From Candidatus Omnitrophota bacterium (lineage in GTDB: Bacteria; Omnitrophota; Omnitrophia; Omnitrophales; Aquincolibacteriaceae): DNA of 64,000 bases. How positions within the stretch are numbered: position 1 is the stretch's first letter; every line of letters starts with the position of its first letter. The translations under genes were made by a program, and so were the position numbers. The stretch is from NCBI GenBank assembly GCA_030698625.1, contig JAUYMS010000047.1, forward strand, positions 12,210-76,209, in the 5' to 3' direction. The notes under the pieces were generated by a model. The model was not told the origin of the DNA. It saw only the letters and a program-made list of their open reading frames with translations, and searched no databases. Positions 13,507 to 44,776 of the stretch are shown piece after piece.

Positions 13507-13878
13507 ATTTGTCGGGTTTTGAGATCCTTCGCTTCGCTCAGGATGACAGCGGTAAACCTTTTTAAAAGCTGGTACTTAATTAGATAGAACTTTCCCGCTT
13601 TTGGGAGTCATAAATTTTTTGGTACAAATGTGTTAAAGCATACCCGGTGAATCACTTACATTCAAACCGATACCGTTTGCGATCTAGCACCGGCAGTCAA
13701 GTCTATGTTTTCCTCCTCTTTTCTGTTTGATCTTATGCTATTGATAATTCGTGTCGCATAGCGTCCTGCTGCCGGACGACCCGATAGTCCTCCCGGTGAA
13801 GCGCCGGTTGAATCATCGATTCAAGCTCGCAGCCGCGATTACACTTTTTTCCAACGCGTCCCACGATACCGGGCATAA

Positions 13879-14568
13879 TTAGGCCTCCTTTCCCGGGGCC
13901 ACATGGCTCAAGCGCAACACATTGGCATGACTGGTAAGACCAACCATCAGCACGCCCACACCTACTAATTCCATCAATTCCTCGGCCATCAAACGCGATG
14001 CACGCCAGAACATCGGCGTATCTTCCGTAATAAGATTCGTTAACATCTCGACGCCCACAGCCCCCCCAAAAAATAGCAGCAAGCCGCTTAACGCACATAT
14101 CGCGCCCGAGCCGTTACTGTCAAAACTTCGTTTTAACTCGGGGAAAACCCACACAACAAAAGCCAAAATAAACGGGCCGAAGAGGACGGGCCACGATGTT
14201 CTGTGCAACGCATCAAGAAACCACGCCGGCATAAAGTTACGCTCGATCACTCCCGAGAAGTTCTCGTGAAACATCACAACCTCATCGCATGACATAAACG
14301 CCAGGGCGCCCGCGGTCAAGAACCACGCCTGCCCTATGTCCCTGCCTGCGGAATTCCCTGCGGTCACAAATGCCGCATGCGCCGCCATAAAAAACATCAC
14401 GCTTGAAACCCATGTGGGGATATTCCCCTCGCGCTGCAAATTGAATAATCTCTCAAGCTGCCAACTCCGCCCATCCAGGAGCAATGCCAGCAAGTGCATC
14501 CCCGCCAATATCAGAATGACTAACCCAACGAGTGCTAACGCACTAGACTGTTTCATTGACGCCTTCAT
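13879..14568 (-). CDS. Small polytopic membrane protein of unknown function (paralog family member 1 of 3)
   Basis: Hydrophobic throughout. Shares ...RD.R.AW... and C-terminal EELMELVGVGVLMVGLTSH blocks with the proteins at 23865..24671 and 29482..30126. Confidence 0.5.
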   Translation of the reverse strand: MKASMKQSSALALVGLVILILAGMHLLALLLDGRSWQLERLFNLQREGNIPTWVSSVMFFMAAHAAFVTAGNSAGRDIGQAWFLTAGALAFMSCDEVVMFHENFSGVIERNFMPAWFLDALHRTSWPVLFGPFILAFVVWVFPELKRSFDSNGSGAICALSGLLLFFGGAVGVEMLTNLITEDTPMFWRASRLMAEELMELVGVGVLMVGLTSHANVLRLSHVAPGKEA

Positions 14569-16276
14569 TTGCTACTGCGTTTCTTGCAACATGCGACAGT
14601 CGGCATACCAAAATGTCATTCGGCGACGCGCCCGCCGTTTCGAATGTCGCCGCGCTTCCGTTCTGTCCATACCATATCGCCTCGCGCAGAAGAAATATCC
14701 TCACCGCGGCCGGCACCGACATCGGATCGTCGAAGTCAATTCGCTTAAGAAGAAACCATAGGTCCCGGCCCTCATAGTGTGACCGGAGTTTTGCGATATC
14801 AGCCGGCGAGCTGAGCATTTCGACAAACTGTTTCCGGTTGTAAAGGGGCAGCACCCTTCCCGGCCGCGGCGCATCGCTTCCGCTCTGGATATGGTTCGCG
14901 CTAAAAATCGGCTCGCGGAATCCGTAAAAGCGGGCCTCTTTGGAATGAGAGACGACCACCGGATTACCCGCGGCGATTCTGCCGCCGAATAGTTCATGCG
15001 CCCGGCCCCAGGCCGGCCTCACCTCGCGGCGCACATAATCGACGGACGTCAGGGCCCACGGATGCGCCGTCGGAACAAGCACGGCAATGCCCAGGCAGGC
15101 CAGGGAGCCGCTTATGGCAAAACGCCGCACGCGGCCGCGCGATGCCCACGCCTGCTTCATGCATTTCGCCACCGTGGCCGCCGTTGCCGCGATCGCCGGG
15201 GCCAGAGCAATATAAAAAAATGTCAGGTCGAACAAGATATACCGTTCCTCTTTTCGCAGAAAGACGAAGGTCTTCAGAAGAAACGGAACAGCAAAAAGAC
15301 ACACAACAAAAGCTCCGCGACGGCCGTATTTCCAGCACGCGTAGACGGCCGCCAACGGATAGAGCGTAAAGAGAACCGGATAGAGGTCTTCCATGGTCCA
15401 CTTGTAAAACAACACCCGGCTGACCGCCCACGAATGCAAAGGGACAGAGAAGGCCTCGGCGGCCATCTTCGTAATAATTCCGGGCTTGAGGACCGCCCCG
15501 ATGACCGCCAGCGCAAGGGTCACGATAAGAATTGCCGAATACTTCGAACTGAAGGGGCCCAGCTTCTCTTCACCGCGAGCCGCCAGGAACATCAGCGCGA
15601 TATACGCAAAGAATGCCGGCACAAAAAAGATAACCAGTTTATGCAATACCAATGAGATACAGAATATTGCGACTGCGCCGAACGCGAGCCCTGTCTGCTT
15701 TAGCCGGCTGCCGGCATATCCCCCCTCAAACAGCCGGAAAGCGAGATACGCGAAGACCGTATACAAAAGCTGAACGAGGGTGTACATGCGGCACTCCCGC
15801 GACATTTTGACACAGAGCGGCGCAAAGGCGATAAGAAGCGCTGCGGCGATCGCGGCCCCGGTTCCAAACCATCGGCGGGTCATCCAGAAGCCAAAGACGA
15901 TGACAGCAACGCCGAAGACAACGGCCGGCATTCTGGCCGCGGTCTCACTGACACCAAAAGTCCTGAACATTCCTGCGATAAGATAGGTGAAAGGCAATGC
16001 CCGCGTATACTCGTAGCCCCCGGGCAGAGTCGGTGAGCCTGTCTCGATCAGCGACTTTGCCGCAAAGACATGGTAAAGCTCGTCGGACCAGAAATTGCTG
16101 ACGCCCAGCTGGTACATGCGCACGCACAGTCCAGCGGCCAAGATAAGCGCCAAAGTCAACCAAACGAGTACACGCCCCCTACTTTTACTTACAGCCGGTT
16201 GTGCAGGGATGTCCAGCACATTGCGCGGCCCGCCGCGGCGGTCGATCCCTCTTTCCAATAGTGCTGAATGGCTCAT
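14543..16276 (-). CDS. GT-C fold glycosyltransferase (family 39/83, ArnT/PMT-like; polyprenyl-phosphate-sugar dependent)
   Basis: N-terminal FWSDELYHVFAAKSL (DE motif loop) followed by more than 10 TM helices. Length 577 aa. Confidence 0.6.
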   Translation of the reverse strand: MSHSALLERGIDRRGGPRNVLDIPAQPAVSKSRGRVLVWLTLALILAAGLCVRMYQLGVSNFWSDELYHVFAAKSLIETGSPTLPGGYEYTRALPFTYLIAGMFRTFGVSETAARMPAVVFGVAVIVFGFWMTRRWFGTGAAIAAALLIAFAPLCVKMSRECRMYTLVQLLYTVFAYLAFRLFEGGYAGSRLKQTGLAFGAVAIFCISLVLHKLVIFFVPAFFAYIALMFLAARGEEKLGPFSSKYSAILIVTLALAVIGAVLKPGIITKMAAEAFSVPLHSWAVSRVLFYKWTMEDLYPVLFTLYPLAAVYACWKYGRRGAFVVCLFAVPFLLKTFVFLRKEERYILFDLTFFYIALAPAIAATAATVAKCMKQAWASRGRVRRFAISGSLACLGIAVLVPTAHPWALTSVDYVRREVRPAWGRAHELFGGRIAAGNPVVVSHSKEARFYGFREPIFSANHIQSGSDAPRPGRVLPLYNRKQFVEMLSSPADIAKLRSHYEGRDLWFLLKRIDFDDPMSVPAAVRIFLLREAIWYGQNGSAATFETAGASPNDILVCRLSHVARNAVANEGVNETV

Positions 16277-16351
16277 GAGTCCTGCACTTCCTTTTCCGCG
16301 ACCGCAAGCAGCGACAAACCGGCCCGCATGGGTACATGTTTTTCCAAGGCT

Positions 16352-17098
16352 TCAACGGTCATTTCTGCCCTTCCTCACCACGAAGGCCTGGCCATGAACC
16401 TCGTATTCAAACAATGGTTCAAACGACAAGCTCGGAATTTCCGATAAAAATTGTTTCAATGCGCTTCGCTGCCCGGCTCCTGACTCCTCGCTAAAAGCCC
16501 GCCAATCGTCAAACAGGACAATTGACCCGCCCTCCAAATAAGGCGCAAGCCAGCGCATTGACTCAATCGTGGACGTGTGCAAGTCGCAGTCCAAAAGTGC
16601 TACAGCCACCCTCTTAAACGGGTACTTTTCCCGCAGTTCCTCGGTAAGAGAGTCTTCATAGAAGCCTTCGATCAAATGGGTGCGAGTCCAATCGACCCCA
16701 TTCTTTTCCAGAAATCGGGTGACTTGCTTCCGGGAGCAGGAAAACTGACCCTTGAAAAAGATTCCGTCACCTATTACTTTGTCTATGTCTTCAAGCTCGG
16801 GCAGCCCCTTGAACGAATCGAAGGCATAAAAGTTGGGCCCCTCAAGACCCAACTCACCGCACACCTTTTGTGCCCACCAATACGTATATCCTTTAAATAT
16901 GCCGAACTCGTAATAGTCGCCGATATCCCTGCCACGCTTTTCCGCCGCGTAGCGCAGTGCTCTGCTCACACCGGCCGGCGCTCCGGGGTTTCCCGGCTTG
17001 AAGGACCGATTGATCGCGTGATAGGCCTTGGATCCCAATGCATACAACGGCGGGTATCGGGCGACAACCTTCTCTACCATTTTCTTAAGAGACCGCAT
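16352..17098 (-). CDS. TylF/MycF-family O-methyltransferase
   Basis: YYEFGIFKGYTYWW (E-x-G-x-x-x-G SAM motif) and LLDCDLHTST (DxDxY metal motif) are characteristic of the macrocin O-methyltransferase family. Confidence 0.65.
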   Translation of the reverse strand: MRSLKKMVEKVVARYPPLYALGSKAYHAINRSFKPGNPGAPAGVSRALRYAAEKRGRDIGDYYEFGIFKGYTYWWAQKVCGELGLEGPNFYAFDSFKGLPELEDIDKVIGDGIFFKGQFSCSRKQVTRFLEKNGVDWTRTHLIEGFYEDSLTEELREKYPFKRVAVALLDCDLHTSTIESMRWLAPYLEGGSIVLFDDWRAFSEESGAGQRSALKQFLSEIPSLSFEPLFEYEVHGQAFVVRKGRNDR

Positions 17099-18062
17099 AG
17101 CTGCGCCTCACCTTGAGATTCAATCCACTTTTCAGATACATGAACACCCCCGGCAAATTGCCTATGCCAATGAGCAGCCTCATTAGAAGGGCAACGGCAA
17201 ATATCGCCGGCGCGGCCGCCCCCGCGATATTGAGAAAATAAACCAACGCGCCCTCCCGCACCCCCCAACCCGCGATCGAAATCGGGAGCATGCTCACCAA
17301 CAACGCCGGAGGAACTAAAATCGCGCAGTCGGCAAAACTTAAACTCATCGAAGTGCTCTTAGCCAAACTCCATACAATCAGAACCCGCATCAACTGGTTC
17401 ATTAGGGCCAGAGCAAACACGACTCCGAGAATACGGCCGTGCTCCTTGTAATCACACAGCGCCGAATAGGCCTCCCGAATCAATTTTATTCCCGGAAAAG
17501 CATTAAAGCGATTCAGGATTTTGTCGGCCAAATTCTGCAGTCCCGGCACTATGAGAAAAGCCACCATCGCCGCCACGGCAAAAGCCGGCGCGGCCATAAC
17601 AATCAGGACTTCATTGCGGCCCCACACGATTGCGGCCCATAGCGCGCCGACAAAAGCCGCAACCATCATGGACACCGCCCCGGTGATCCGGTCCATCGCG
17701 ACTGAGGAGACGGCTTCTGCATGCCGTCCGCTCGAAGCGCCCAAGCTATACATTCGAACAGCATCTCCACCCGCGGTCGCCGGCAAAAAGGATCCCAGAA
17801 AATTACTGACCCACACGCTCCACAATAAATGCCTGTAACCCACTTTTTCGCCTTTTGCCTCAATCAGCAACTGCCACTTATACGCGGTCAGAAAACGGAT
17901 CATAAGCACAGGAACCAGCCCGAGAGCAAAGATATCCCAACGGCAATCGGCAAAGACGCGGCCAATTTCGCTCCACTCGACTTTAGCGCTAAGCCAGAAA
18001 AGTATGGCGGCGCTAATAAAAGCGCGAACGATTGTTCCGCGAAGATTCCGTTTCTCGCTCAC
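17085..18062 (-). CDS. Flippase-like / LPG-synthase-TM (UPF0104) family membrane protein
   Basis: 325 aa, about 8 TM helices. The N-terminal LRGTIVRAFISAAILFWL...W pattern is typical of this family, which is often adjacent to glycosyltransferases. Confidence 0.5.
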   Translation of the reverse strand: MSEKRNLRGTIVRAFISAAILFWLSAKVEWSEIGRVFADCRWDIFALGLVPVLMIRFLTAYKWQLLIEAKGEKVGYRHLLWSVWVSNFLGSFLPATAGGDAVRMYSLGASSGRHAEAVSSVAMDRITGAVSMMVAAFVGALWAAIVWGRNEVLIVMAAPAFAVAAMVAFLIVPGLQNLADKILNRFNAFPGIKLIREAYSALCDYKEHGRILGVVFALALMNQLMRVLIVWSLAKSTSMSLSFADCAILVPPALLVSMLPISIAGWGVREGALVYFLNIAGAAAPAIFAVALLMRLLIGIGNLPGVFMYLKSGLNLKVRRSYAVS

Positions 18063-19246
18063 GTTACGACCTCGTCAAAAATAGATCCATCCGGGACAAG
18101 CACCTCATAGACGGCTCCAAGGGCGCCGGCATCATCTTCGTCTTCGGACGTTACATACGCTCTTGCTCTCGCACCCAGTGCCGCGGCAAGCTCTTTGTCG
18201 AGAGTCAGCCGGGCCAACGCATCCGCGAGTGCTTTCGTATCGCCGTCCTTTACGAGAAGGCCCGCATCACGCAATATCTGTCTTGTGCTCGTCGTGTCAA
18301 AACCCGCGACCGGCAGACCGCAAGCCATATAGGCATACAACTTACCGTTACCTTCGCTGCTTTCATGTTTGGGGCTCACCGCTACGTCCGCCGCATTCAA
18401 GTACGCCGGCAGATCTTCAAACCTCACTTGTCCGGTGAAGGTCACGTTCGCCGTCAAACCCATATCTTGGGCCTTGCTGCGATAATGCTGAACATTCGGA
18501 TAGCCTATAATCAGCGTGTGAAATGCATGTTTTTCACGGAGGATCCTCAAGGCCTCAAGCAAGGCATCGATTCCCTGGTACTCATTAAGGAGTCCGGCGT
18601 ACACAATCACAGGCATCTTCTCCGGGATTCCGTATCGCATTCTTATATGAAGGCCGTTTACTCCGGGGCGAAAATGCTCCGTATCCACACTGTCCACAGT
18701 ATGGGCAACAGGCACCGAACCGGTGTGCGGCTCTTCACTCAAGCGCTCCGCGCTATTCGCGGTGCTTGTAACAATCGCGTCCACGCGCATTTCAATGAAT
18801 TCCTCCAACCACGAGAAAAGACGGTAAAGCAGACCCCCGGCTCTCGCAAACTTGTGCGCCGCAATCTCGCCGGAAAGACTCCCTTGATAATCGAGTACCA
18901 ACGGAATCCGTTTGGACCCTCGAGCCAAGTAGGCAACGCAGGCGCCTTCATGCAAATGGGCATGAATCACATCGGGATTCCACGTTCTTATCCACTTCCG
19001 CGTCAGGGCCGTTAACATGACATCGATGTATATCTTGTGCCATGACGGGCCGGCCGCGAGCTTCCTATACCACGGCACCGGCCAGGTCCTGACCGTTTCG
19101 ACACCGTCAATATCCCGCCCAAGCGGGTAGGTGCATAAGACCACTTCATGCCCCTGCTCCCTAAGTGCAATGGCGGATCGATAGACGCGCACATGGCAGC
19201 CGCGGTCTGAAAAAAAAGGTGTCGGCACCACCATTAAGACCTTCAT
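18059..19246 (-). CDS. Glycosyltransferase family 4
   Basis: The N-terminal MKVLMVVPTPFF...GGCHVRVY GT4 N-domain and the C-terminal EGNGKLYAYMACGLPVAGFD signature. Confidence 0.75.
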   Translation of the reverse strand: MKVLMVVPTPFFSDRGCHVRVYRSAIALREQGHEVVLCTYPLGRDIDGVETVRTWPVPWYRKLAAGPSWHKIYIDVMLTALTRKWIRTWNPDVIHAHLHEGACVAYLARGSKRIPLVLDYQGSLSGEIAAHKFARAGGLLYRLFSWLEEFIEMRVDAIVTSTANSAERLSEEPHTGSVPVAHTVDSVDTEHFRPGVNGLHIRMRYGIPEKMPVIVYAGLLNEYQGIDALLEALRILREKHAFHTLIIGYPNVQHYRSKAQDMGLTANVTFTGQVRFEDLPAYLNAADVAVSPKHESSEGNGKLYAYMACGLPVAGFDTTSTRQILRDAGLLVKDGDTKALADALARLTLDKELAAALGARARAYVTSEDEDDAGALGAVYEVLVPDGSIFDEVVT

Positions 19247-20253
19247 GCCGTCACCATTTCACGCGTCTCGCTCTTCAGTGAACCTTCCGCGCGATAGGAC
19301 GTTGCTGTCTTGCTCAAGCCCTCGGCCAAACTAACTCGCGGTGCATACCCCAATCTGTCACGCGCCTTACTGATGTCGAATGCCCGGTTGTGAGTAAAAA
19401 AATCAACGCGGCGCTTATAAAGCGGCGGCCTCAATCCGAGCGGCAAGCACACCGCCTCGCACAAGGCTGCGGCGGCATAGAACGGCCACACGGGCAGATG
19501 CAGCCGCGGCACGCGAACGCCGAGGATGTGAGCAATTTTTCCGGCAAGGTCATTGAGAGTCACGTAGTTTTCATCTCCGAAAAAGAAGGCTTCGCCCGCT
19601 GCCCGGTCACTTTCAGCGCATTGGATCAACCCCTCAACCAAATCCGTCACATACACCATATGGTAGTAAGTCTTCCCGCTCCCGATCATGACAAAATATC
19701 CGCGCTGAATACTGCCGAAGAGCTTCACAAACCTCTCTTCCCCGGGCCCGTAAATCGCTGCCGGGCGGGCGATGCTCATCGCCAGGCCGCGCTCGGCAGA
19801 GGCTTTCCAGACTCTTCCTTCCGCCAATAACTTGGTTCGCTGATACTCATCGCCGGGATTGAACGGCGAGTCCTCATTGCCCGGTATTTCAGCGACCGCC
19901 CCGTGCACTCCCATCGTGCTGCAATGCACCAGCCGCTTCACGCCATGATTGAGACACGCGTCGATAATATTCTGCGTACCCTCGACATTAACGTTCCAGT
20001 AATCCTCTTTCGTCGCAGACTGGTCACGATAGAGCGCGGCGAGGTGAAAGACTTTCTCGCAACCGCCGACTGCCCTGTCCACCAGAGCGGCGTCGCGGAT
20101 GTCGCCCACCTCAAGCTCCACTCCCTTCGCGATGAGTTTGGTCACACCGCTCTTTCTGCGCACAAGCGCCCTGACCCGGTGCCCGCGCTCAACGAGGGCA
20201 TCAACGAGATATCCTCCCGTAAATCCTGTGGCGCCGGTTACGAGTATCTTCAT
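19243..20253 (-). CDS. NAD-dependent epimerase/dehydratase (extended SDR)
   Basis: MKILVTGATGFTGGYLV Rossmann motif. I place the start at the ATG at 20253, which overlaps the TGA of the upstream gene (ATGA). The ORF-track start at 20373 is probably an over-extension. Confidence 0.8.
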   Translation of the reverse strand: MKILVTGATGFTGGYLVDALVERGHRVRALVRRKSGVTKLIAKGVELEVGDIRDAALVDRAVGGCEKVFHLAALYRDQSATKEDYWNVNVEGTQNIIDACLNHGVKRLVHCSTMGVHGAVAEIPGNEDSPFNPGDEYQRTKLLAEGRVWKASAERGLAMSIARPAAIYGPGEERFVKLFGSIQRGYFVMIGSGKTYYHMVYVTDLVEGLIQCAESDRAAGEAFFFGDENYVTLNDLAGKIAHILGVRVPRLHLPVWPFYAAAALCEAVCLPLGLRPPLYKRRVDFFTHNRAFDISKARDRLGYAPRVSLAEGLSKTATSYRAEGSLKSETREMVTA

Positions 20254-21965: not shown

Positions 21966-22930
21966 TACTGTCCAATGACCTCCTCAATGCCAACGTCCTC
22001 AAAATCCCTGGTCCGTGAGTAGACAATCATTTCACCGATCAAGCCGATCGAGATAAACTGCACGCCCATAACAATCAAAAGAATGGCGAGCAGCATAATC
22101 GGCCGGTCTGCCATGCCCTCTCCGAATGCGAACCGCTCAAACACCAAGCCGACATTCATGGCAACTCCTACACCTGCCGAAAATAGCCCGACGCCTCCGA
22201 AGAATCTGAGCGGTTTTTCGTTGAAGCGCGTAATAAAAAGGAGATTGAGAATATCGAGCACCCTTCTCACATACGAAGCCGGCCCATACACCGTCACGCC
22301 CTGCGGTCTCTCCCGCCGCGAGAGCGGTATGCCCGTAACGCGAAAGCCCTTTCGCTCCGCCAGCACGGGCAGGAAACGGAAAAAGTCGCCATAAAGAGGC
22401 ACCGCATTCAATATGGAGCGCCGAAAGATTTTGAGGGTTGAGTTCAGATCGTGAACTTCGCTGCCCGTTAACTTTCGAGTGCACCAGTTAAACAGCTCAG
22501 ACTGCCACTGATTGACCTTCGGCTGACCGCGCCAGCTGCGCACCCCGTTAACAAAGTCATAACCTTCACGCATGCGCGCGATCAGTTGGCGTATGTCGTC
22601 TGCCCTGAACTGGCCGCCCGCTTCCACGATCATGACCCAGCGCCCCCGCATCGCGCCCCGCGCAGTATTCATAGAACTTGCCTTTTCGGCCTTCGGCATG
22701 AGCCTGACCACCCTGGCTTCCACTTCCGGATCCAAATCGATCTCATCACTGGGTTTCGCCAGCACCAGGAATTCATACGACAACCCTGACTCGGCCGCCA
22801 CATGATCCAGATCACGCCACAGATTCCGCAGCACACGCGGCCCGTTGGTTAAGATAATGCAAATCGTCAGGTCGATCGTCTCTGAAAACTGCTCTGACAA
22901 TGTGCCTAGCCCTCTCTCTTTAACCTGCAT
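21965..22930 (-). CDS. Polyprenyl-phosphate glycosyltransferase (GT2, DPM1/ArnC/GtrB-like) with C-terminal TM helices
   Basis: The GT2 catalytic domain is followed by two C-terminal TM helices (FFGGVGLFSAGVGVAMNV...LLAILLIVMGVQFISIGLIGE). Confidence 0.65.
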   Translation of the reverse strand: MQVKERGLGTLSEQFSETIDLTICIILTNGPRVLRNLWRDLDHVAAESGLSYEFLVLAKPSDEIDLDPEVEARVVRLMPKAEKASSMNTARGAMRGRWVMIVEAGGQFRADDIRQLIARMREGYDFVNGVRSWRGQPKVNQWQSELFNWCTRKLTGSEVHDLNSTLKIFRRSILNAVPLYGDFFRFLPVLAERKGFRVTGIPLSRRERPQGVTVYGPASYVRRVLDILNLLFITRFNEKPLRFFGGVGLFSAGVGVAMNVGLVFERFAFGEGMADRPIMLLAILLIVMGVQFISIGLIGEMIVYSRTRDFEDVGIEEVIGQ

Positions 22931-23810
22931 AATTTCGCTCCCGGGAAAAGTGAAATAGCCACTCCGCCATTAGCCCGCAGCTCACCAGCGTAAAAGCCCC
23001 AAAGGCGTAAAGAAACGAAGCGCCGTAATAGGTCATGCCGCCTTGCAGTGCGGTTAAGACCGCAAAAAACATGAAGGGCGCGGCGGCGAGGAAAAAATAG
23101 ATCCGCGGTTCTTCACGAAACCGCGCAAAAAGCGCCAAGGCGATGAGGTCAAGAAACACTTTGAAAGTGCGCGAGAGTCCGTACTTCGAGTTTCCGCGCA
23201 CTCGGGGCCGATGGTTCACTTCGATCTCTGCGATGCGGAAGCCCTTGAGCGACAAAAGGAAAGGGATGAAGCGATGTCTTTCTGAATAAAGCGAAATACT
23301 GCCGAGCGCACTCGCCCGATAAAGCTTCAGAGAGCAACCGGAGTCATGCAATGAGAGACCGGTGATCAAAGCTAAAATCCAGTTTGCAATACGCGACGGC
23401 AGCGTTCGCGTCAGGCTATTATCTTTACGATTCTTGCGCCAGCCGCTGACCACGTCATAGCCTTCCTGCGCCTTCGAAATCAGTTTCGGCAAATCGGCCG
23501 GATCATTCTGCCCGTCGCCGTCCATGGTAAGGATCCAATCGCCCTGCGCCTGTTTAATGCCCGCTGCCAGCGCACGGGTTTGCCCGAAATTGGTCCTTAA
23601 ACGGACGAGTTTTAGCTCCGGAGAGTGCTTTTGCAGGGATTCGAGTTCCTGCCAGGTGCGGTCCTTCGACCCGTCGTCGACGGCTATGATTTCAAACGGT
23701 ACGCCGTGGCTCCGAAGTTCTCCCAGCGAAGTCTGGATAACAGGGCGTGCGTTCTCTGCCTCATTATAGAAAGGAATGACTTGTGATATGAAATGGATTG
23801 AGTTCTTCAC
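22920..23810 (-). CDS. Polyprenyl-phosphate glycosyltransferase (GT2, DPM1/ArnC/GtrB-like), tandem paralog
   Basis: VIPFYNEAEN...IIAVDDGSKDRT...TMDGDGQNDP plus C-terminal TM helices. Confidence 0.7.
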   Translation of the reverse strand: MKNSIHFISQVIPFYNEAENARPVIQTSLGELRSHGVPFEIIAVDDGSKDRTWQELESLQKHSPELKLVRLRTNFGQTRALAAGIKQAQGDWILTMDGDGQNDPADLPKLISKAQEGYDVVSGWRKNRKDNSLTRTLPSRIANWILALITGLSLHDSGCSLKLYRASALGSISLYSERHRFIPFLLSLKGFRIAEIEVNHRPRVRGNSKYGLSRTFKVFLDLIALALFARFREEPRIYFFLAAAPFMFFAVLTALQGGMTYYGASFLYAFGAFTLVSCGLMAEWLFHFSRERNYAG

Positions 23811-23864
23811 GGTTACCCGAGAGGATTCGTATCATCCTCTTCCTTTCATCGCCAGATGATGGCT

Positions 23865-24671
23865 TTATTTGCTGATTTTTTCTTGTTTTTTCGAGGGCAC
23901 AGGCTCGTCTTCTTCAGCGCCCTCGCCGATAAGCCTGAGTGCCAACCGCGCGGACGATTCCGGCACCGGCATCCCGAAGGACTCTTGCACCGTTAACAAT
24001 CGAACCGCCAACCGAAAAAGCTGCCGCTCATGGATCGCAAAACCCGTTAATATCGCGGCAGCTCCAATCATCTGTAATGTTTCAAGGGTAACAACCATGT
24101 ATCCCAGGCCGACTTCGACTAATTCTAATTCCTGGTAGAGATGCAGGAACGTACGCACCAGCGAACAGCCGAAGAGAAGGACAAAACCCGGAAGGGCGAG
24201 TGTTCTGCCTTCGCGTGTATCATCAAAGGCATCGCTCATGGGCAGCATCAGGAGAAGAATAATGCCCGTCTTAAAAAGCGCGAGAGGAACTGAAAATGTT
24301 CCGACCGCATAATCGAAGGAAGTCAAGACCAGGAAAATTGCCGTAATCGACCAGGCACGAGTGTCACGCACCCGTGTTGCCAGTCTTGCCATTCGGCAGC
24401 TTACCACACTGGAAATCACCAAGAGAGCAGCGATAAACCAAGCCGCGCCTGAGCCCCCGCCGTAAATCCCTGAGGCCCATTCGGCAACTTTACTTCCGCC
24501 ATCACCGACCCAAACATAAGCACCGGCGGCCACAATGACCGACCCGACGATTCCAAGAGCCGCAAAGATCGGACTCAACGGCAAAAATTCTCCTACCGCA
24601 TCAAGCATTAAACTTTTGGATTCCCGTTTTTTCACGAGCTTTGGTTCCTTTCTTAGGGATTGGTGTGCCAA
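23865..24671 (-). CDS. Small polytopic membrane protein of unknown function (paralog family member 2 of 3)
   Basis: AAWFIAALLVISSVVSCRMARLATRVRDTRAW and LETLQMIGAAAILTGFAIH match the blocks in members 1 and 3. Confidence 0.5.
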   Translation of the reverse strand: MAHQSLRKEPKLVKKRESKSLMLDAVGEFLPLSPIFAALGIVGSVIVAAGAYVWVGDGGSKVAEWASGIYGGGSGAAWFIAALLVISSVVSCRMARLATRVRDTRAWSITAIFLVLTSFDYAVGTFSVPLALFKTGIILLLMLPMSDAFDDTREGRTLALPGFVLLFGCSLVRTFLHLYQELELVEVGLGYMVVTLETLQMIGAAAILTGFAIHERQLFRLAVRLLTVQESFGMPVPESSARLALRLIGEGAEEDEPVPSKKQEKISK

Positions 24672-24675
24672 TCCC

Positions 24676-25692
24676 TTACTTGGCGTTAAGCTGCTCTTCC
24701 GACTCGACTTCTGCTGCTTGTTTCTCTTTCAAAACCTTCTTAGTCCACCAGCTGTTCAATTTGTTTTCCATGCCTTCAAATCCCCAGCCGGCCTTTTTAA
24801 AATGCATCTTGGTCTGATGCTTCATGCCCGTTTTCATTCCTGCCGTGTAGTGATCGTAATAGCTCTGATAGTAGCGATAATCCCCGGAATGCATCTCCAC
24901 ATTCGTGAGGATATAGCCCAGCACCTTCGCTCCCGATTGCTTAAACAGCTGGTTCGCGTGGGAAATTACCGTCTTCGGGGTCCGGCCGACCTGAATGATA
25001 AAGACCACCCCGTCGACGTACTTCGCCATGATGCCGGGGTCGGAAACCGACATGATCGGAGGCGCATCGATGATGACATAATCAAAGTGCGCCCTAAGTT
25101 CTGCGATGAGCATCTTGAAGTTGTCTGACGACACAAGGGCCGCCGGACTCTTCATGATGTCGCCGCGAGGCATGACCGCAAGGTTCGCCCTCGAGTTCTT
25201 CACGAAGACTTCTTTTGGGTTCAGGCTCTCCGTAAGAAGATTCGAGAGTCCTCGGAGTTTTCTTCCGAACCCGAAATACTCCGCAATCTTACCGCGCCTG
25301 AGGTCCGCATCGATCAGGGCGACCTTCACGTTCGGGTCCTCGGACAGGCACATGGCGAGGTTCGTGGCAGTGACACTCTTCCCCTCACTGTGGATCGAGC
25401 TCGATACCAGGATCACCTGAGTCGCATCTTTCTGGATGCGGTTGATGAGACTCGTACGCGTCATGCGGTACTGTTCCGAAATAATGGATTCCGGAAAGTG
25501 ATAAGTCACGAGCCGCTGATCGGGCTTTGTGTTCTTCATCACTTTGATGCCGGCATCCCACGACGGGCGTTTCTCGGTAATCTCGTTAGGCAATTGAAAG
25601 GTCGGCACCTTGCCGCGTGAGCGTTTCGGAGAATCATCGGCCTCCTGGCGCTTGTCTTGGATCTTCTGTAATGCCTCAGTGAACTTGCTCAT
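24676..25692 (-). CDS. BY-family protein tyrosine autokinase (polysaccharide co-polymerase kinase subunit)
   Basis: Walker A is SSSIHSEGKSVTATNLA, Walker A' is VALIDADLRRG, Walker B is DYVIIDAPP, and the C-terminal Tyr cluster is YRYYQSYYDHY. I prefer the start at MSKFTE (25692); the ORF-track start is 25746. Confidence 0.75.
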   Translation of the reverse strand: MSKFTEALQKIQDKRQEADDSPKRSRGKVPTFQLPNEITEKRPSWDAGIKVMKNTKPDQRLVTYHFPESIISEQYRMTRTSLINRIQKDATQVILVSSSIHSEGKSVTATNLAMCLSEDPNVKVALIDADLRRGKIAEYFGFGRKLRGLSNLLTESLNPKEVFVKNSRANLAVMPRGDIMKSPAALVSSDNFKMLIAELRAHFDYVIIDAPPIMSVSDPGIMAKYVDGVVFIIQVGRTPKTVISHANQLFKQSGAKVLGYILTNVEMHSGDYRYYQSYYDHYTAGMKTGMKHQTKMHFKKAGWGFEGMENKLNSWWTKKVLKEKQAAEVESEEQLNAK

Positions 25693-26518
25693 ATGCGTCT
25701 TCTCCTTGAAATCGAATTTCATATATAGCTTCATCAATAATTTCACGGTTTATCGACTCTGATTCCCGCACAAATCCGGTTAAAAGCGCGTGGTCGCACA
25801 GCACATTGATCATGCGCGGAATTCCCTGCGAGTACTCAAAAATGCGCCCGCATACATCTTCATCAAAGAGGACACTCAGATCGCGGCCGTTCGCGTTCGC
25901 ACGGTTCAGGCGATGCTGGATATACTTTTTCGTCTCTTCAAAACTGAGCGGCGTGATGTGGTAGTGTATCGCCACGCGCTGGCGCAGCTGCTCCAGGTTG
26001 ACCGCTTCAAGCTTGCGGCGAAGTTCCGGCTGGCCGATCAAAACGATCTGGATCAGCTTCTCTTTTTCGGTCTCGAGATTGGAAAGCATTCGCACCTCTT
26101 CCAAACAGGCCGGACTCAGGTTCTGGGCTTCGTCGATGATGAGCACCACGTTGTGACCTTCGAGGACCTGCTGCACCAAATATTTGTTCAGCTGGATAAG
26201 GAGCCTGTCTTTGGAACCGTCCCTGTAGGCGACCCCAAGGTCCTCCAGAATCATGGTGATAATCCCCTTCGGGCTTAAGTGTGTATTTGTGATCACGGCG
26301 GTCTTAATCTTCCCACTCAAATTACGCAGGAGCGTGCGCGTGACCGTGGTCTTGCCGCACCCGATCGGCCCCGTCACCACAACAAATCCTTTACGCTGTT
26401 TGATCGCATAGGTCAGCGCATCAAGCGCAGACTGATGCTGCTCCGACGGATAGAAGAAATCCGAATCCGGCGTAATGGTGAAGGGATTTTCTTTAAAACC
26501 ATAGAATCGCTTATACAC
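25676..26518 (-). CDS. ExeA/GspA-like AAA ATPase (PEP-CTERM-type EPS locus ATPase)
   Basis: Walker A is VVTGPIGCGKTT, followed by IIDEAQNL. Length 280 aa. Placement beside the Wzz/BY-kinase/Wza genes is characteristic. Confidence 0.7.
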   Translation of the reverse strand: MYKRFYGFKENPFTITPDSDFFYPSEQHQSALDALTYAIKQRKGFVVVTGPIGCGKTTVTRTLLRNLSGKIKTAVITNTHLSPKGIITMILEDLGVAYRDGSKDRLLIQLNKYLVQQVLEGHNVVLIIDEAQNLSPACLEEVRMLSNLETEKEKLIQIVLIGQPELRRKLEAVNLEQLRQRVAIHYHITPLSFEETKKYIQHRLNRANANGRDLSVLFDEDVCGRIFEYSQGIPRMINVLCDHALLTGFVRESESINREIIDEAIYEIRFQGEDAYEQVH

Positions 26519-27725
26519 TGAGTTCGGCCCTCATCCTTTCGCCCAGGAGCAGTTCTTCCGGCTTAATCGTCGCAATCGCGCCGAATATCGGAAGCTCCAG
26601 CAGCTGCCTGGCCTCTTCCACGGTTCGTATTGAATTATTAGACATTTCGATCAAGAAAACGAGTCCGGCGCCGAGACCGAAGCCCAGAACCAAACCCATA
26701 ATTACGATAAGCGGCTTATTCGGCTTATAAGGCTCGAGCGGCAAACGGGCCGGCTCCAACACCTTGAAACGCATCCCCTTGTCGGCATCTTCCAGGGTTT
26801 GCGAGAGTTTCGCCGTTTCGAGACGTTCCAACAGCCGCTGATAAATCCCCGCGTTCACACTGTAGTCGCGATGAAGCTTAGCAAGCTGCTGCTCCTGCAA
26901 GGGAACACTCGAGATGAGTCTTGCATAATCTTCGGGAGTGATTTCTACGCCCAGATCGCGCATTTGATCCATCTGTTCATTACGGCGCAATTCCAGCCTC
27001 TTGATCAGACTGCGCGTCTCGATAACCCGGGGATGCTTCTCGGTGTTATCCACCAGCAGATTGTTGAGCTGAATCTTTAGGTCCACTAACTGCTGGTTCA
27101 TTCCGGTCGCAACCGGCAGTGTGTAATTATAGATTTCTCTGAATTCACGCAGAGTCGTTTCGGATGCCTCGAGCTTTGCGCGATATTCCTCGAGCTGATT
27201 TTCGATAAACTGAATTGCGCTATTGGTCTCCATATTGGTCGAAGTGATACTTCCTTCAACCACGATGTCGGAGAGCGTCTGAACGACTTCCTGCACCTTC
27301 TTCGGGATCTGCCCTTCAAAGGTCAGAAGGACCAGGTCGCCGCCTCTCAAATTGATCGATATCTTATCCCTAAGATTCTTGATTAACTTCTCATAAGCAA
27401 TCGGATTGTTTGCATTGACATCCAATTTCATCTTCTCTGCGAGCAATGTCAGGCGGGGCCACGACATCAGCTGATCCCTCAGGGTGCGCAGGCGCTCGCG
27501 TGAGGCCGGCGTGATGGCTAGGCCTGCGATCAAGGGATTCAGGATTTGTTCGGTCTCAATTAAGAGCACTGTCTGTGCCCGGTAGACCTTCGGCATTGCT
27601 ATCGCAATCGAGGCAGCAATGACCATCGCGGCAAGAGTGGTGATAAGAAGCACGAACTTGTGCCGCATCATCATATAGTAGTATTCGCGTATCCTAAATC
27701 CTTGTGTCATATTTTCTATGGCCAT
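26511..27725 (-). CDS. wzz: Polysaccharide co-polymerase / chain-length determinant (Wzz-like, PCP-2b periplasmic subunit)
   Basis: An N-terminal TM (FVLLITTLAAMVIAASIAIA), a long coiled-coil periplasmic region, and a C-terminal TM (LIVIMGLVLGFGLGAGLVFLIEM). Confidence 0.7.
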   Translation of the reverse strand: MAIENMTQGFRIREYYYMMMRHKFVLLITTLAAMVIAASIAIAMPKVYRAQTVLLIETEQILNPLIAGLAITPASRERLRTLRDQLMSWPRLTLLAEKMKLDVNANNPIAYEKLIKNLRDKISINLRGGDLVLLTFEGQIPKKVQEVVQTLSDIVVEGSITSTNMETNSAIQFIENQLEEYRAKLEASETTLREFREIYNYTLPVATGMNQQLVDLKIQLNNLLVDNTEKHPRVIETRSLIKRLELRRNEQMDQMRDLGVEITPEDYARLISSVPLQEQQLAKLHRDYSVNAGIYQRLLERLETAKLSQTLEDADKGMRFKVLEPARLPLEPYKPNKPLIVIMGLVLGFGLGAGLVFLIEMSNNSIRTVEEARQLLELPIFGAIATIKPEELLLGERMRAELSV

Positions 27726-27909
27726 GAGTTCTAAATTCCTCCGAAAGAGTATTTTTTAAGGCTCGATAACATCCCAGATATTGAGAATCACCCGTACCAC
27801 TAGGCGGCCGCCCATCACAATCAAGGGCCAAAAAAACATCGTGTGCCCCAATGCCCTATTGCTGATTTTTAGCCATCTGTGCTTCTGCATTAAAGACCGG
27901 CCTTTTATT

Positions 27910-28920
27910 TTAGTTATTATTATTACCGGCATTGCGGAAGTAGCCGCCTTCGCTCGCCGCATTTCCCCAGCCTAGCTCATAGACTGAGGCCGCTTGAAAT
28001 AGCGGGCCCGTAATGCGCGAGAACGCGTTGACAAACTTGTCGAAATAGCGCTGTTTCACGAGAATGGTGTCGCCCGGCTCCAAGAAGAAGTCCTCGGCCG
28101 AGTCACCTTTCTCGAGGAGTTTCGAGAGGTCAATTTTTTTCTCCGACGCATTCCCGCTATCGGTAAATTCCGACGGACGAATTACGTAAACCCGCTTCAG
28201 CGAGCCGTCTGCGCGGATGAGCCCTGCAGCCACCACGGCTTCTTTAACCGTGATATTGTCGCCTTTCATCGCGTATTTACCGGGACGGCTGACATACCCA
28301 AATACATAGACAGCCTTGCTGCGGTATTCTGAGATCATGACGGCTACTTCGGGATAACGGACATACTCGCGAAGCCGCTCTACCAATTCGGCTTTTAGCT
28401 GTTCCTTGGTCTTGCCGACTGCCTTCACGTCACCTACGAAGTTGTACTGCACATTGCCCTCCGGATCGATAACGAACCGCCCGGAGAAGTCAGGCTGATT
28501 TCTGACGATGATGGTGACAACGTCGTCTATGCCCAGCGTATAATCGGATCCTTCACCAATGATTTCGATGTATGGAGAATAATGCGAATAGGGAGAAACC
28601 TCGGAGGCGAAGTAAGGATCCTGGCCTTGCTGCGGCGCTCCCGCCTGCCCCATTCCGGGAGATCCCGCATACTGAACGGGAGCCGGGCCCTGAGAGTAAG
28701 GTGAGGTCATAAAGCTAGCATAGGGAGAAAATTGCGTTTCATAATTCGTGCCGTATTGCACTTGCACGGCAGAGGTCTGCCCCGGCTGTGCATTTGATGG
28801 CCCCATATCCTGGCTATTTCCCTGATAGGACAAGGGCGGGGCAAAAGCCTTGGGCGTAAATACGCAGATCGCCAGTGCGATCAAAAGGGCTTGTTTGGTT
28901 AAATGATGATATTTAGTCAT
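27910..28920 (-). CDS. wza: Polysaccharide export protein (Wza-like, Poly_export + SLBB) with N-terminal Q/P/Y/S-rich low-complexity region
   Basis: A signal peptide, then LGIDDVVTIIVRNQPDFSG...YNFVGDVKAVGKTKEQL...VYVFGYVSRPGKY (PES + SLBB pattern). Confidence 0.7.
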   Translation of the reverse strand: MTKYHHLTKQALLIALAICVFTPKAFAPPLSYQGNSQDMGPSNAQPGQTSAVQVQYGTNYETQFSPYASFMTSPYSQGPAPVQYAGSPGMGQAGAPQQGQDPYFASEVSPYSHYSPYIEIIGEGSDYTLGIDDVVTIIVRNQPDFSGRFVIDPEGNVQYNFVGDVKAVGKTKEQLKAELVERLREYVRYPEVAVMISEYRSKAVYVFGYVSRPGKYAMKGDNITVKEAVVAAGLIRADGSLKRVYVIRPSEFTDSGNASEKKIDLSKLLEKGDSAEDFFLEPGDTILVKQRYFDKFVNAFSRITGPLFQAASVYELGWGNAASEGGYFRNAGNNNN

Positions 28921-28961
28921 TACGTTAGTAACCTCGCTTGAATTATTTTTTTAAATCTCTT

Positions 28962-29162
28962 TTAAATCTCATAGACCGACTCGACGACACGCTTGATCGC
29001 CGCAAAATCATCTTCCATGTACACGCGCCAGCCTTTCCAATCGCGCTTGGGCTTCCGGATTTTCCCGGCCTTTTCCCAGCGCACGATGGTTTTAGGGGTA
29101 ACGCCAACTTTTTCCGCTACTTCCGTGATTGTGAGTCTTCCGTTCAACACTGGACCTCCCAA
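28962..29162 (-). CDS. Small helix-turn-helix DNA-binding protein (MerR/excisionase HTH_17 family)
   Basis: LTITEVAEKVGVTPKTIVRWEKAGKI. The true start is probably the internal GTG/TTG downstream of GGGAGG, which gives about 61 aa. Confidence 0.6.
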   Translation of the reverse strand: MGGPVLNGRLTITEVAEKVGVTPKTIVRWEKAGKIRKPKRDWKGWRVYMEDDFAAIKRVVESVYEI

Positions 29163-29481
29163 GTTATAAAAAGTTGAAACTTAAGTATATAGACTTTCCC
29201 ACTATGTCCGGGAAGGTCCTGGTAATTACACGAATCGTGCCAACTTTCCGTGAGGAGCAGTTATAGACTCACCTGGGGGGAATATTAGCGGGATGCTATC
29301 GATTGCGTGTTAGGGAAATCGGACTTAACGAACTTCGTGTACGTTGCAAGAATGACCATATGTCTATTTCTTTGAACGTAAACATTTGGATTGGCCTTTA
29401 ATACGATTGTCTGTAAGGACTTAAGGGTGCGTCGATTTATATGAACGCTATGTGGTACACGTTCATCTTTATTTTAGACGC

Positions 29482-30126
29482 TTAAGCGAGAACCGGGTCG
29501 ACCCAGATGACCTTGTTATCTATGAGGGCTTTGATTCTATCGGGCATCAGACGTCCATTCACACGTCGCATCTGTGAATTGGTCGCCTTCTCTTGATCGA
29601 GAAGAAGCAGAAACAGGACAACGGCTCCCATCATCTTCAGAGGCTCGAATACAGGCATCAGCACCGAGGTCATCCCCATGAGACTGCCGCCGATCATCAT
29701 AAGGAGCGCAACCATCAGGACCTGACGATTTCTGGGCATATCCCACAGAGCCCTATAAAGTCGAACCATGGTCACGGCAGCAAAACACGCGGCAATGCCC
29801 ATGACGATCACATGAGTCTGGGATGCGATTTCGATAAAAGACACGGCCAGCATGAGCATAACCAGCATACCCCATGAACGCTTGTCCGTGGCTCGAGTTG
29901 CCATATTTCTCATACTGTTGGCGACGACACTGCTTAGAATTGCCAGCACAGCGGCAAACCACCTTACGGCTGAGCCCTCCCAATATATGTCAAGCGTGGA
30001 ATTCTGTCCTGCGGTTGAACTTAAATGAGCATATACGGCGCCACCGGCAATAATGCCTCCGATAACCGATAGTGACGTAATCATCGCCTTGTGGGGTAGA
30101 TATTCTGCAATTGATTTTCTGTCCAT
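29482..30126 (-). CDS. Small polytopic membrane protein of unknown function (paralog family member 3 of 3)
   Basis: VRWFAAVLAILSSVVANSMRNMATRATDKRSW aligns block-for-block with member 2. Confidence 0.5.
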   Translation of the reverse strand: MDRKSIAEYLPHKAMITSLSVIGGIIAGGAVYAHLSSTAGQNSTLDIYWEGSAVRWFAAVLAILSSVVANSMRNMATRATDKRSWGMLVMLMLAVSFIEIASQTHVIVMGIAACFAAVTMVRLYRALWDMPRNRQVLMVALLMMIGGSLMGMTSVLMPVFEPLKMMGAVVLFLLLLDQEKATNSQMRRVNGRLMPDRIKALIDNKVIWVDPVLA

Positions 30127-41971: not shown

Positions 41972-42002
41972 AATTTGTGTAACTTGTTCTATATACGGCC
42001 CT

Positions 42003-42377
42003 CTACCTGTTTTCTTGACCTGCATTTTCGGGCGCAATTTCCTCTCTGAGCCAAAGGGTCTTCTCCTCATCCTCTGAGAAGAGAATTATCCGATCGGTGT
42101 AAATGTGTAATAGGGTCGCCCCGTGAATTTCTTCGCCCGGCCGATACAACTCGCCGTCAATCAGCGCCACCGATCCCCCTTCGGGGTCGTAGATAATGCC
42201 CTCAATGACGAAGGTGCTCTGCACTTTCGGGACACCGCCCTGAAGCAGGCCCTCAGGCCCGATAAGCGCCACCATGGGGTCTCGACGCGAGCCGGTATCA
42301 TAAGCGATTTCCCCGGCATAGGCCATGGAAAAACACATAATGCTATACAAAGCTATAAATGCGGCCGGTCGTCTCAT
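42003..42377 (-). CDS. pilP: PilP-like pilus assembly protein
   Basis: A signal peptide and the beta-sandwich pattern ...GGSVALIDGELYRPGEEIHG... Confidence 0.5.
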   Translation of the reverse strand: MRRPAAFIALYSIMCFSMAYAGEIAYDTGSRRDPMVALIGPEGLLQGGVPKVQSTFVIEGIIYDPEGGSVALIDGELYRPGEEIHGATLLHIYTDRIILFSEDEEKTLWLREEIAPENAGQENR

Positions 42378-44711: not shown

Positions 44712-44732
44712 GATTTTAAATATCGGCGTTTT

Positions 44733-44776
44733 GTGGAAAAAAGAAACCCACCCCGCTTTAGAGCGAGGTGGGTTTC
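44733..44776 (-). terminator. Rho-independent terminator downstream of the pilin gene
   Basis: A perfect 11-bp stem AGAAACCCACC/GGTGGGTTTCT with a 14-nt loop, followed on the minus transcript by a UUUUUU tract. Confidence 0.7.

Follow-up and report, generated by a model that had tools for sequence, protein, structure and literature searches.

We analyzed a 64,000-nucleotide stretch of DNA from Candidatus Omnitrophota bacterium (assembly GCA_030698625.1, contig JAUYMS010000047.1, positions 12,210 to 76,209 of the forward strand; hereafter the window), in which a polysaccharide locus encodes three small polytopic membrane proteins, here called M1, M2 and M3. With very little room for doubt, these are three diverged copies of one six-helix protein family that comprises two subtypes. 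The family appears to be undescribed, with no detectable relative in Pfam, NCBIfam, PDB or BFVD, and a comparison at the level of AlphaFold DB or HHpred could still link it to a known one. An earlier note, made from the sequence alone, had called the three proteins paralogs of an uncharacterised family and had suggested a dedicated role in the exopolysaccharide (EPS) locus in which they lie.

Homology, fold and spread of the family

The three minus-strand open reading frames (ORFs) listed in the earlier note were borne out, encoding 229, 268 and 214 amino acids (aa) for M1, M2 and M3, respectively (Table 1), and a family scan across the window returned exactly three members. The true start of M2 is probably the GTG at 24635 (256 aa) instead of the TTG at 24671, because AAGGA lies upstream of that GTG; this start gives M2 an N-terminus resembling those of other family members. 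The public copy of M2 starts later, which removes the conserved N-terminal GEFLP motif. The motif strings quoted in the note were located at residues 76-107 and 195-203 of M2, 54-85 of M3 and 196-203 of M1. The block that it had assigned to the first cytoplasmic loop does include this loop, but in fact consists of helix 2, the loop and the start of helix 3.

In pairwise BLASTP with compositional adjustment, M2 and M3 aligned at E=4e-14 (24% identity across 148 aa), M1 and M2 at E=0.009, confined to the C-terminal 72 aa, and M1 and M3 at E=3.1. An E-value above 0.01 had been named beforehand as grounds for giving up the relationship; on this scale the M2-M3 pair stood clearly, the M1-M2 pair barely and the M1-M3 pair not at all. 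Because of the latter two values, membership of M1 was insecure from pairwise comparison alone, and the same two values are what speaks for a chance resemblance among hydrophobic proteins. Alignment by hhalign of M2 plus M3 with M1 plus P0004, a protein 41% identical to M1, gave 81% probability and E=1.2e-5 over 180 collinear columns. Two hidden Markov models (HMMs) were built without any window sequence, from 54 M1-like and 5 M2-like proteins. The former scored M1, M2 and M3 at 205.4, 37.5 and 27.5 bits, and the latter at 53.6, 86.1 and 64.8 bits, respectively.

As controls, we used 500 global and 500 twelve-residue block shuffles of each protein, the reversed sequences, and three other polytopic proteins of the window (Wzx, GT-C and LPG_synthase_TM). 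Shuffles of M2 and M3 peaked at 9.7 bits with the 54-sequence HMM and at 15.7 bits with the M2-type HMM, the top shuffle of any of the three proteins reached 15.9 bits with the M2-type HMM, and the other real polytopic proteins scored at most 0.9 bits against the family HMMs. The scores of 27.5-86 bits given by independent HMMs to the window proteins, against control scores of at most 15.9 bits, rule out chance similarity, which is further opposed by the collinearity across 180 columns and by four residues (W53, W82, S93 and G203 in M1 numbering) that are invariant in the four-way alignment and kept in M1, M2 and M3. The claim of paralogy was thus upheld, for M2 and M3 by BLASTP and for M1, as a distant relative, by profiles only.

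An AlphaFold2 model of M1, computed from a 60-sequence alignment, had a predicted local distance difference test (pLDDT) score of 92.9 and a predicted TM-score (pTM) of 0.88, and consisted of six long helices with additional short helices in the first and third outer loops. The model of M2 (pLDDT 83.8, pTM 0.80) showed the same six helices plus two tail helices, without the third-outer-loop helices seen in M1. Six segments were also found in M3 by hydropathy. In 127 aligned single-domain proteins taken from the search hits, K+R amounted to 9.7 against 5.4 for D+E in the N-terminus, loops 2 and 4 and the C-terminus, and the remaining loops were net acidic. This distribution obeys the positive-inside rule, so that an N-in/C-in topology, with both termini cytoplasmic, is quite likely. 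Independent support for this topology came from three fusion proteins (L042, L044 and L060; Table 1), in which the M1-type domain is followed by a basic stretch, a seventh helix and an additional domain. In L044 and L060 this domain measures about 600-650 residues and has weak GH127-like matches (in L044 at 25.4 bits, against a cut-off of 24.9), and such a domain after a seventh helix is expected to lie outside the cytoplasm. All three fusions retain the conserved acidic and histidine residues described below, and the glycan-active-looking domain would lie on the same side of the membrane as these residues.

Relatives of the family were counted, as clusters at 50% identity, by an exhaustive HMMER search of 1.84 billion representatives with a four-sequence profile. 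With a threshold of E<=1e-3 the search returned 4,306 relatives, so that the family numbers at least this many clusters; 432 of the relatives passed E<=1e-10 and 27 passed E<=1e-30. Their length is almost always 200-260 aa. Scanning one genome per GTDB species gave 147 relatives. The family occurs in Omnitrophota, Chloroflexota, Cyanobacteria (Nostoc, Fischerella and Tolypothrix), Actinomycetota, Acidobacteriota, Gammaproteobacteria (Pseudohongiella), Bacteroidota, Armatimonadota, Verrucomicrobiota and others, and therefore spans both monoderm and diderm phyla.

The description of the family as uncharacterised was supported. No Pfam or NCBIfam family model covered M1-M3; among 60 members, 13 Pfam families were matched by any protein, each by at most 2 of the 60 (at most 1 of the 60 for any NCBIfam model), and all matches were weak. 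The only source name found for members was 'hypothetical protein'. No PDB sequence relative of the family profile was detected (best E 0.06). Exosortases, acyltransferase_3 and DUF families had been put forward as possible remote relatives, together with a Foldseek search, and none of these relatives was found. Foldseek, run on the M1 and M2 models, gave no significant match in PDB (best E 0.89 for M1 and 0.29 for M2) or in BFVD (best E 0.14), and the query-normalised TM-score was at most 0.46 in all comparisons. A word-indexed search of 5.8 billion proteins returned M1-M3 themselves and one 41% relative of M1, and nothing more for M2 or M3. A tblastn search with M1 against PLSDB plasmids gave no match, and no relevant paper was found in full text for the family motif strings or for Omnitrophota EPS.

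The proposed outer-face site and its loss in M2 and M3

Residue conservation was measured in 117 single-domain M1-type representatives with a mutual identity of at most 50%. Conserved positions (M1 numbering) were E47 (93%), W53 (97%), S55 (91%), S93 (97%), D95 (99%), E96 (98%), H101 (100%), E102 (96%), W126 (92%), E174 in helix 5 (91% E and 9% D), E196 (97%), E197 (98%), E200 (97%) and G203 (96%), and M1 carries every one of them. The M1 site thus contains seven near-invariant carboxylates, one histidine and one near-invariant serine at outer helix ends. According to the helix boundaries of the AlphaFold2 model, the polar residues are found no more than a few turns from the outer ends of helices 2, 3, 5 or 6 or in the first outer-loop helix after helix 3, apart from S55, which is slightly deeper in helix 2. 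The earlier note had proposed mapping the conserved charged residues; this mapping yielded ten polar residues, 91-100% kept in M1-type proteins, at one face. The conserved polar set is rather likely to be a real functional site on the outer face, and on the periplasmic side of the inner membrane E47, S93, D95, E96, H101, E102, E174, E196, E197 and E200 would together make up a single acidic pocket. In the 'SCDE' motif, C94 is conserved in just 47%, which argues against a cysteine nucleophile.

The second subtype, M2-type, is rarer than M1-type and was defined from P0037, P0053, P0060, P0072, P0110 and P0132 together with the metagenome loci L081-L083. Its proteins have an N-terminal motif, (K/R)x(L/I)(A/S)(E/D)Y(F/L), and a cytoplasmic tail, HE(R/Q)FL..Q..RV.SG..P.G(L/I)P...AEWALRMIGTPTRDE, and have lost nearly all of the acidic and histidine residues. 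In the subtype membership test, M2 scored higher with the M2-type HMM and M3 matched only this HMM. M2 has its own versions of both motifs (GEFLPLS at the N-terminus and HERQLF...ARLALRLIGEG in the tail); M3 has the N-terminal motif IAEYLPHK and merely a vestigial tail. From the M1-type site, M2 retains only W78, W107, S118, D120, E197 and G203 (M2 numbering). In the four-way alignment, the acidic/histidine site is reduced to D120 and E197 in M2 and to E50, E99 and E161 in M3 (each in its own numbering), and both proteins are without the H-E loop. In some M2-type proteins (P0060 and P0072) 'SCQE' is still present, with an H-D or R-D pair after it, and the sequences suggest that the M2-type subtype descends from an M1-type ancestor.

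An 18-column deletion in the outer loop between helices 3 and 4 is common to M2 and M3 alone, indicating that the two are sister copies. M3 lies between def and a small helix-turn-helix (HTH) gene, and in the syntenic locus L082 def and the HTH gene are directly adjacent; M3 is a lineage-specific extra copy. Judging by the residues that they have lost, M2 and M3 may be non-catalytic partners or adaptors, a proposal that we make tentatively.

Tandem copies elsewhere suggest a dimer. Eighteen of the 150 best hits were proteins of 445-513 aa containing two complete copies and a short linker. With six helices per copy, the halves of these tandem fusions must be parallel. Most fusions keep the site in both halves, and in P0104, P0108, P0139, P0109 and P0111 the first half is without part or all of it. 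Adjacent pairs of family genes were found in L001, where they overlap by 4 nucleotides (nt), and in L064. Fusions with a degenerate half, together with these gene pairs, are natural precedents for an 'intact plus degenerate' pairing such as that of M1 with M2 or M3. Whether the working unit is a parallel dimer appears evenly balanced on these sequence data, and M1 might form a physical complex with M2 or with M3.

The polysaccharide locus and related loci

Positions 1-30126 of the window, on the minus strand, constitute one polysaccharide locus (Table 1). In rising order, it starts with genes for a Wzy/WaaL-like protein, a GDSL-like protein, several GT4 and GT2 enzymes, and pyruvyl-, methyl- and sulfo-transferases, followed by Wzx, M1 and a PMT_2/Agl23-like GT-C enzyme. 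It continues with a TylF methyltransferase, LPG_synthase_TM, GT4, an SDR epimerase, a GlpD-like FAD oxidoreductase, a GT2-like protein and an ArnC-like GT2, and ends with M2, BY-kinase, AAA_22 ATPase, Wzz/GNVR, Wza, the small HTH gene, M3 and def. The neighbors that the earlier note had assigned to the three genes (Wzx, the GT2 pair with the BY-kinase, and the small HTH gene) were correct.

Table 1. Coordinates of the family genes, their motifs, neighboring genes in the window, and the fusion and YdjM-like genes of other loci
Feature	Coordinates	Strand	Remarks
M1	13879..14568	minus	Canonical M1-type member; 229 aa; NCBI start at 14556 gives 225 aa (P0003, Q8R76_11175)
M1 motif EGNIPTWVSS	14401..14430	minus	Residues 47-56; outer start of helix 2
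M1 motif SCDEVVMFHEN	14260..14292	minus	Residues 93-103; outer end of helix 3 and start of outer-face helix
M1 motif EELMELVG	13960..13983	minus	Residues 196-203; outer part of helix 6
M2	23865..24671	minus	Degenerate M2-type member; longest ORF 268 aa, TTG start; public copy P0001 (239 aa)
M2 cytoplasmic tail IHERQLFRLAVRLLTVQESFGMPVPESSARLALRLIGEGA	23916..24035	minus	Residues 213-252; aligns with the conserved M2-type tail
M3	29482..30126	minus	214 aa; shorter sister paralog of M2; P0002, Q8R76_11250
Wzy / O-antigen-ligase-like polymerase	1..1504	minus	Polytopic, at least 500 aa, runs off the window start; 7tpg_B (WaaL-type) E=3.7e-7
Wzx (MOP) flippase	12034..13506	minus	Polysacc_synt_3 E=9e-73; 372 nt downstream of M1
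GT-C glycosyltransferase (PMT_2 / Agl23-like)	14543..16276	minus	PMT_2 29.8 bits, TIGR03663 54 bits; directly upstream of M1
ArnC-like polyprenyl-phosphate GT2	22920..23810	minus	Glycos_transf_2 E=1e-33, NF007986 155.6 bits; directly downstream of M2
Cytoplasmic BY-type tyrosine autokinase	24676..25746	minus	TIGR01007 144.8 bits; ends 4 nt before the M2 ORF
AAA_22 (ExeA-like) ATPase	25676..26518	minus	Pfam/NCBIfam; between the Wzz/GNVR and BY-kinase genes
Wzz/GNVR	26511..27725	minus	Pfam/NCBIfam
Wza/OPX	27910..28920	minus	Pfam/NCBIfam; 336 aa
Small HTH gene	28962..29162	minus	66 aa; directly upstream of Wza, between M3 and Wza; (…LTITEVAEKVGVTPKTIVRWEKAGKI…)
Fusion L042	9941-11857		Acidobacteriota/Anaerolineae set; M1-type domain and seventh helix; domain of about 340 residues without Pfam hit
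Fusion L044	3529-6240		Acidobacteriota/Anaerolineae set; seventh helix, then domain with weak GH127-like and pectate-lyase-2-like matches
Fusion L060	4722-7589		Acidobacteriota/Anaerolineae set; seventh helix, then domain with weak GH127-like and pectate-lyase-2-like matches
YdjM-like gene in L003	1178-1804
YdjM-like gene in L081	778-1425
YdjM-like gene in L082	10776-11474
YdjM-like gene in L083	452-1084

M1 and the GT-C gene overlap by 26 nt, at the 5' end of the former and the 3' end of the latter. The Wzy-like ORF carries an O-antigen-ligase/Wzy-like loop (…FSRGGYLA…, …HNSYIIIAAEMG…), and its match to the WaaL-type polymerase/ligase 7tpg_B indicates that a polymerase is encoded within the locus itself. 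In 1-31,500 no gene for an initiating phosphoglycosyl transferase was seen. The small HTH protein, a label assigned by eye, is 43-75% identical in the syntenic loci described below, and its gene is a candidate regulator of the locus. The Wza/OPX protein has an N-terminal region of about 120 aa rich in P, Q, G, S and Y, and its only domains are Poly_export and SLBB, followed by about 45 residues.

The interval between M1 and M2 is taken up exactly by a module of eight genes, from GT-C through the ArnC-like GT2 (14543-23810), that the syntenic loci L082 and L001 lack; there, only sugar-nucleotide genes precede the family gene. M2 and M1 thus flank a lipid-linked-sugar module that has been inserted. 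By its gene content, the module looks like a unit for the synthesis, oxidation/epimerisation, flipping and transfer of a polyprenyl-phosphate sugar, and it may resemble DprE1/DprE2 plus GT-C. Two long gaps were observed in this tightly packed locus, 13507-13878 between M1 and Wzx (372 nt) and 29163-29481 between M3 and the HTH gene (319 nt); neither contained a convincing ORF, Rfam match, promoter or terminator. Promoter, terminator, Rfam and tRNA scans around and across the window gave nothing informative. Further along the minus strand, the window contains a type IV pilus / type II secretion-like cluster (40400-50204) encoding a secretin, PilM, a T2SSF platform protein and two tandem MshEN-T2SSE ATPases, as well as a giant ORF of 2,670 aa (55681-63693) with no Pfam match at E<=1e-5.

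Nine loci with a family gene (L001, L002, L004, L005, L006, L007, L010, L066 and L082), from Omnitrophota and from metagenome-assembled genomes labelled Elusimicrobia or Planctomycetia, were syntenic with the window. They share the same-strand order HTH-Wza-Wzz-(AAA_22)-BY-kinase-(epimerase, GlmS-like, UDP-sugar dehydrogenase)-family gene-...-Wzx, and their proteins are 32-75% identical to the window counterparts. Gaps in this order are that HTH and Wza are off the contig end in L002, that L006 has no AAA_22 match, and that the stretches retrieved for L004 and L010 showed no Wzx. The AAA_22 ATPase is kept at 53-72% identity in the eight other loci (L001, L002, L004, L005, L007, L010, L066 and L082). 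In L002 the family gene is directly followed by Wzx, and in L066 the two overlap; the family gene also shares an overlap with an AsnB-like amidotransferase gene in L001 and directly adjoins one in L004. In four loci, including all three external M2-type loci, the family gene is overlapped by a YdjM-like (PF04307) gene, and no such gene is present in this window.

By contrast, the neighbors were heterogeneous in about 70 other loci from many phyla, where the family gene is often monocistronic. Only 44 of 139 flanking genes were on the same strand within 150 nt. The commonest Pfam families among them, SLH (6) and GHL10 (5), came from five closely related heterocystous cyanobacteria. No universal partner emerged from Pfam annotation of the 139 flanking genes or from all-against-all clustering of 734 ORFs within 6 kb, in which the largest cross-phylum neighbor cluster consisted of unrelated ABC ATPases. 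The suggested dedication to polysaccharide synthesis therefore holds in part: placement in an EPS cluster recurs in the nine syntenic loci, but this is lineage-limited, and the heterogeneous, often lone genes elsewhere do not allow an EPS role to be generalised to the family. Two more specific ideas were rejected. A particular link between M2 and the BY-kinase was dropped because their adjacency is not conserved, three genes separating them in L082, and the family as a substitute for a missing Wzy was dropped in view of the Wzy/WaaL-like gene at the window start and the orphan state of most family genes.

Possible functions

The explanation that we favor overall, though it remains somewhat short of probable, is that the family provides an outward-facing, cation-dependent site acting on envelope glycan, with M2 and M3 as non-catalytic partners. 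The acidic pocket of M1-type proteins would bind one or more divalent cations, and its ligand or substrate would be an envelope glycan, lipid-linked or nascent, or the polyprenyl-(pyro)phosphate carrier of that glycan. In this locus M1 would act beside the GT-C enzyme, to which it may be translationally coupled, and beside Wzx and Wzy. M2 and M3, which have neither the pocket nor the H-E loop and in which the M2-type tail is degenerate (M2) or vestigial (M3), would be non-catalytic partner or adaptor subunits. A parallel dimer would be the working unit, and 'active plus degenerate' pairs would be tolerated, as in some natural tandem fusions. For the central step, cation binding combined with action on a lipid-linked or nascent glycan or carrier lipid beside GT-C, Wzx and Wzy, the sequences leave the matter possible but doubtful. 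A bolder version, which we regard as quite unlikely, would make the M1-type proteins an unrecognised class of outward-facing metal-dependent enzymes whose substrates are polyprenyl-(pyro)phosphate carriers or envelope glycans, lipid-linked or nascent, and which work as parallel dimers with M2/M3-like regulatory pseudo-subunits; such enzymes could, for example, constitute a third kind of undecaprenyl-pyrophosphate phosphatase, or be hydrolases or transferases that modify glycans.

Several observations weigh against the explanation that we favor. The majority of family genes are found away from polysaccharide loci and without a conserved partner, so the substrate may be general rather than EPS-specific. 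The only family gene in 20 kb of the L082 EPS cluster is an M2-type copy, which implies that M2-type proteins can serve without an adjacent M1-type partner. The spatial clustering of the acidic residues is deduced from helix boundaries rather than seen directly as a pocket, and no known metal-binding or catalytic motif was matched. Moreover, the only moderately conserved arginine of the M1-type site is R40 (63%), and seven carboxylates with this single arginine appear to fit cation binding better than direct phosphate binding.

The same carboxylates could instead belong to a small cation channel or transporter assembled from two six-helix halves, with the outer carboxylate ring as its entry or selectivity site; its presence in EPS loci would then be incidental or serve cation supply or sensing, and M2 and M3 would be halves with an inactive or regulatory part. 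In favor of this are the tandem 6+6 fusions and adjacent gene pairs, the likeness of seven invariant carboxylates plus a histidine to a hard-cation site, the fact that most of the genes stand alone among unrelated neighbors in the manner of housekeeping transporters, and the occurrence of the family in monoderms and diderms alike. We nevertheless consider a channel or transporter rather unlikely: with S55/S56 apart, the near-invariant polar residues lie near one membrane face and there is little sign of a route across the bilayer or of a gate on the cytoplasmic side, no transporter family was matched in sequence or fold, some members are fused to a large outer-face GH127-like domain, and repeated placement in one conserved EPS cluster points to glycans. 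M2-type proteins raise a further alternative, since they are kept in EPS clusters, alone in L082, without the acidic site. They have a conserved cytoplasmic tail, and M2 begins 4 nt past the kinase gene, as would suit a pure scaffold or adaptor, with no chemistry of its own, that organises the Wzx-Wzy-Wzz-kinase machinery and docks the BY-kinase or the AAA_22 ATPase through its tail. Ten polar residues conserved at 91-100% in M1-type proteins across phyla are, however, hard to account for by a scaffold role alone, the M2-kinase adjacency breaks down in L082, and most members have no EPS machinery encoded nearby, so that such a role is unlikely.

It is very unlikely that the proteins are extremely divergent members of a known family, among which exosortase/EpsH, GtrA, ArnE/ArnF, Wzy/O-antigen ligase, acyltransferase_3 and YdjM were considered. 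M1 and M2 matched none of these, at most 2 of 60 members matched any one of them at E<=0.01, no fold match was obtained with Foldseek, and acyltransferase_3 and the other Pfam, NCBIfam and DUF families gave no shared model match at E<=0.01. What favors such a relationship is that M3 alone has matches below the cut-offs to Multi_Drug_Res (15.4 against 23.7 bits) and PMT (15.1 against 22.7 bits), and that the locus resembles PEP-CTERM-type EPS loci, with TIGR03018 and TIGR03027 matching below their cut-offs. PEP-CTERM-type EPS loci often encode an exosortase, and the active site of EpsH consists of Cys, Arg and His. Like EpsH/XrtA, the window proteins are polytopic membrane proteins encoded among EPS genes, which here include those for an OPX exporter, a chain-length protein, an ATPase and a tyrosine kinase, and in relatives also for AsnB-like amidotransferases. 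An exosortase was rejected, however, as the Exosortase_EpsH model (PF09721) matched neither M1-M3 at E<=0.1 nor any of the 60 members, and the SCDE cysteine is poorly kept. Homologs of EpsH have at least eight helices (PMC1569441), against six here. A Wzy or O-antigen ligase was rejected for want of a Pfam match, for its size (six helices and 214-268 aa, against about ten helices or more and a Wzy_C-type loop) and because the locus has a separate Wzy/WaaL-like gene at 1-1504.

The closest known systems are functional rather than homologous analogies, and the comparisons with GtrA and ArnE/ArnF are offered as leads only. GtrA-like proteins (PF04138, e.g. mycobacterial Rv3789), with about four helices and 120-140 aa, accompany glycosylation modules of a polyprenyl-phosphate GT2 and a GT-C. 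M1 and M2 are likewise small polytopic inner-membrane proteins, and their genes neighbor those of a GT-C (overlapped by M1) and an ArnC-like GT2 (directly adjoined by M2), but the window proteins have six helices, PF04138 matched none of M1-M3 or the 60 members, and the acidic/histidine site has no GtrA counterpart. ArnE and ArnF, of about 110 aa and four helices each, form an SMR-type heterodimeric flippase of undecaprenyl-phosphate-aminoarabinose. The likeness is that of paralogous small membrane proteins in a lipid-linked-sugar locus, ArnE and ArnF acting as a pair; the difference is that M1, M2 and the wider family are without a match, since the SMR model (PF00893) is absent from the 13 Pfam families of the 60 members and is approached only by M3, below threshold. 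BacA/UppP and PAP2 proteins are small polytopic inner-membrane proteins of monoderms and diderms with Glu/His/Ser-containing outer-face sites and often stand-alone genes. The family shares with them a putative outward-facing site, frequent lone genes, sometimes a place in glycan loci, and occurrence in both monoderms and diderms, but no sequence or fold similarity was detected, and the M1-type site is dominated by carboxylates with few basic residues. The YdjM/DUF457 proteins (PF04307), also uncharacterised small membrane proteins and encoded directly beside the family gene in four loci, are not homologous to the family: hhalign against the YdjM-like neighbor in L082 gave 0.2% probability.

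What is new here is an undescribed family without a detectable relative, as distinct from a demonstrated new mechanism. Its conservation pattern, with ten polar residues kept at 91-100% on one face, is among the most striking for a membrane protein, and at least 4,300 sequence clusters across phyla recommend it as a clearly delimited target for structural and biochemical work. Single copies are carried by culturable cyanobacteria and actinomycetes. The Omnitrophota locus itself is a natural experiment, in which one intact and two degenerate copies lie by GT-C, Wzx and the export machinery.

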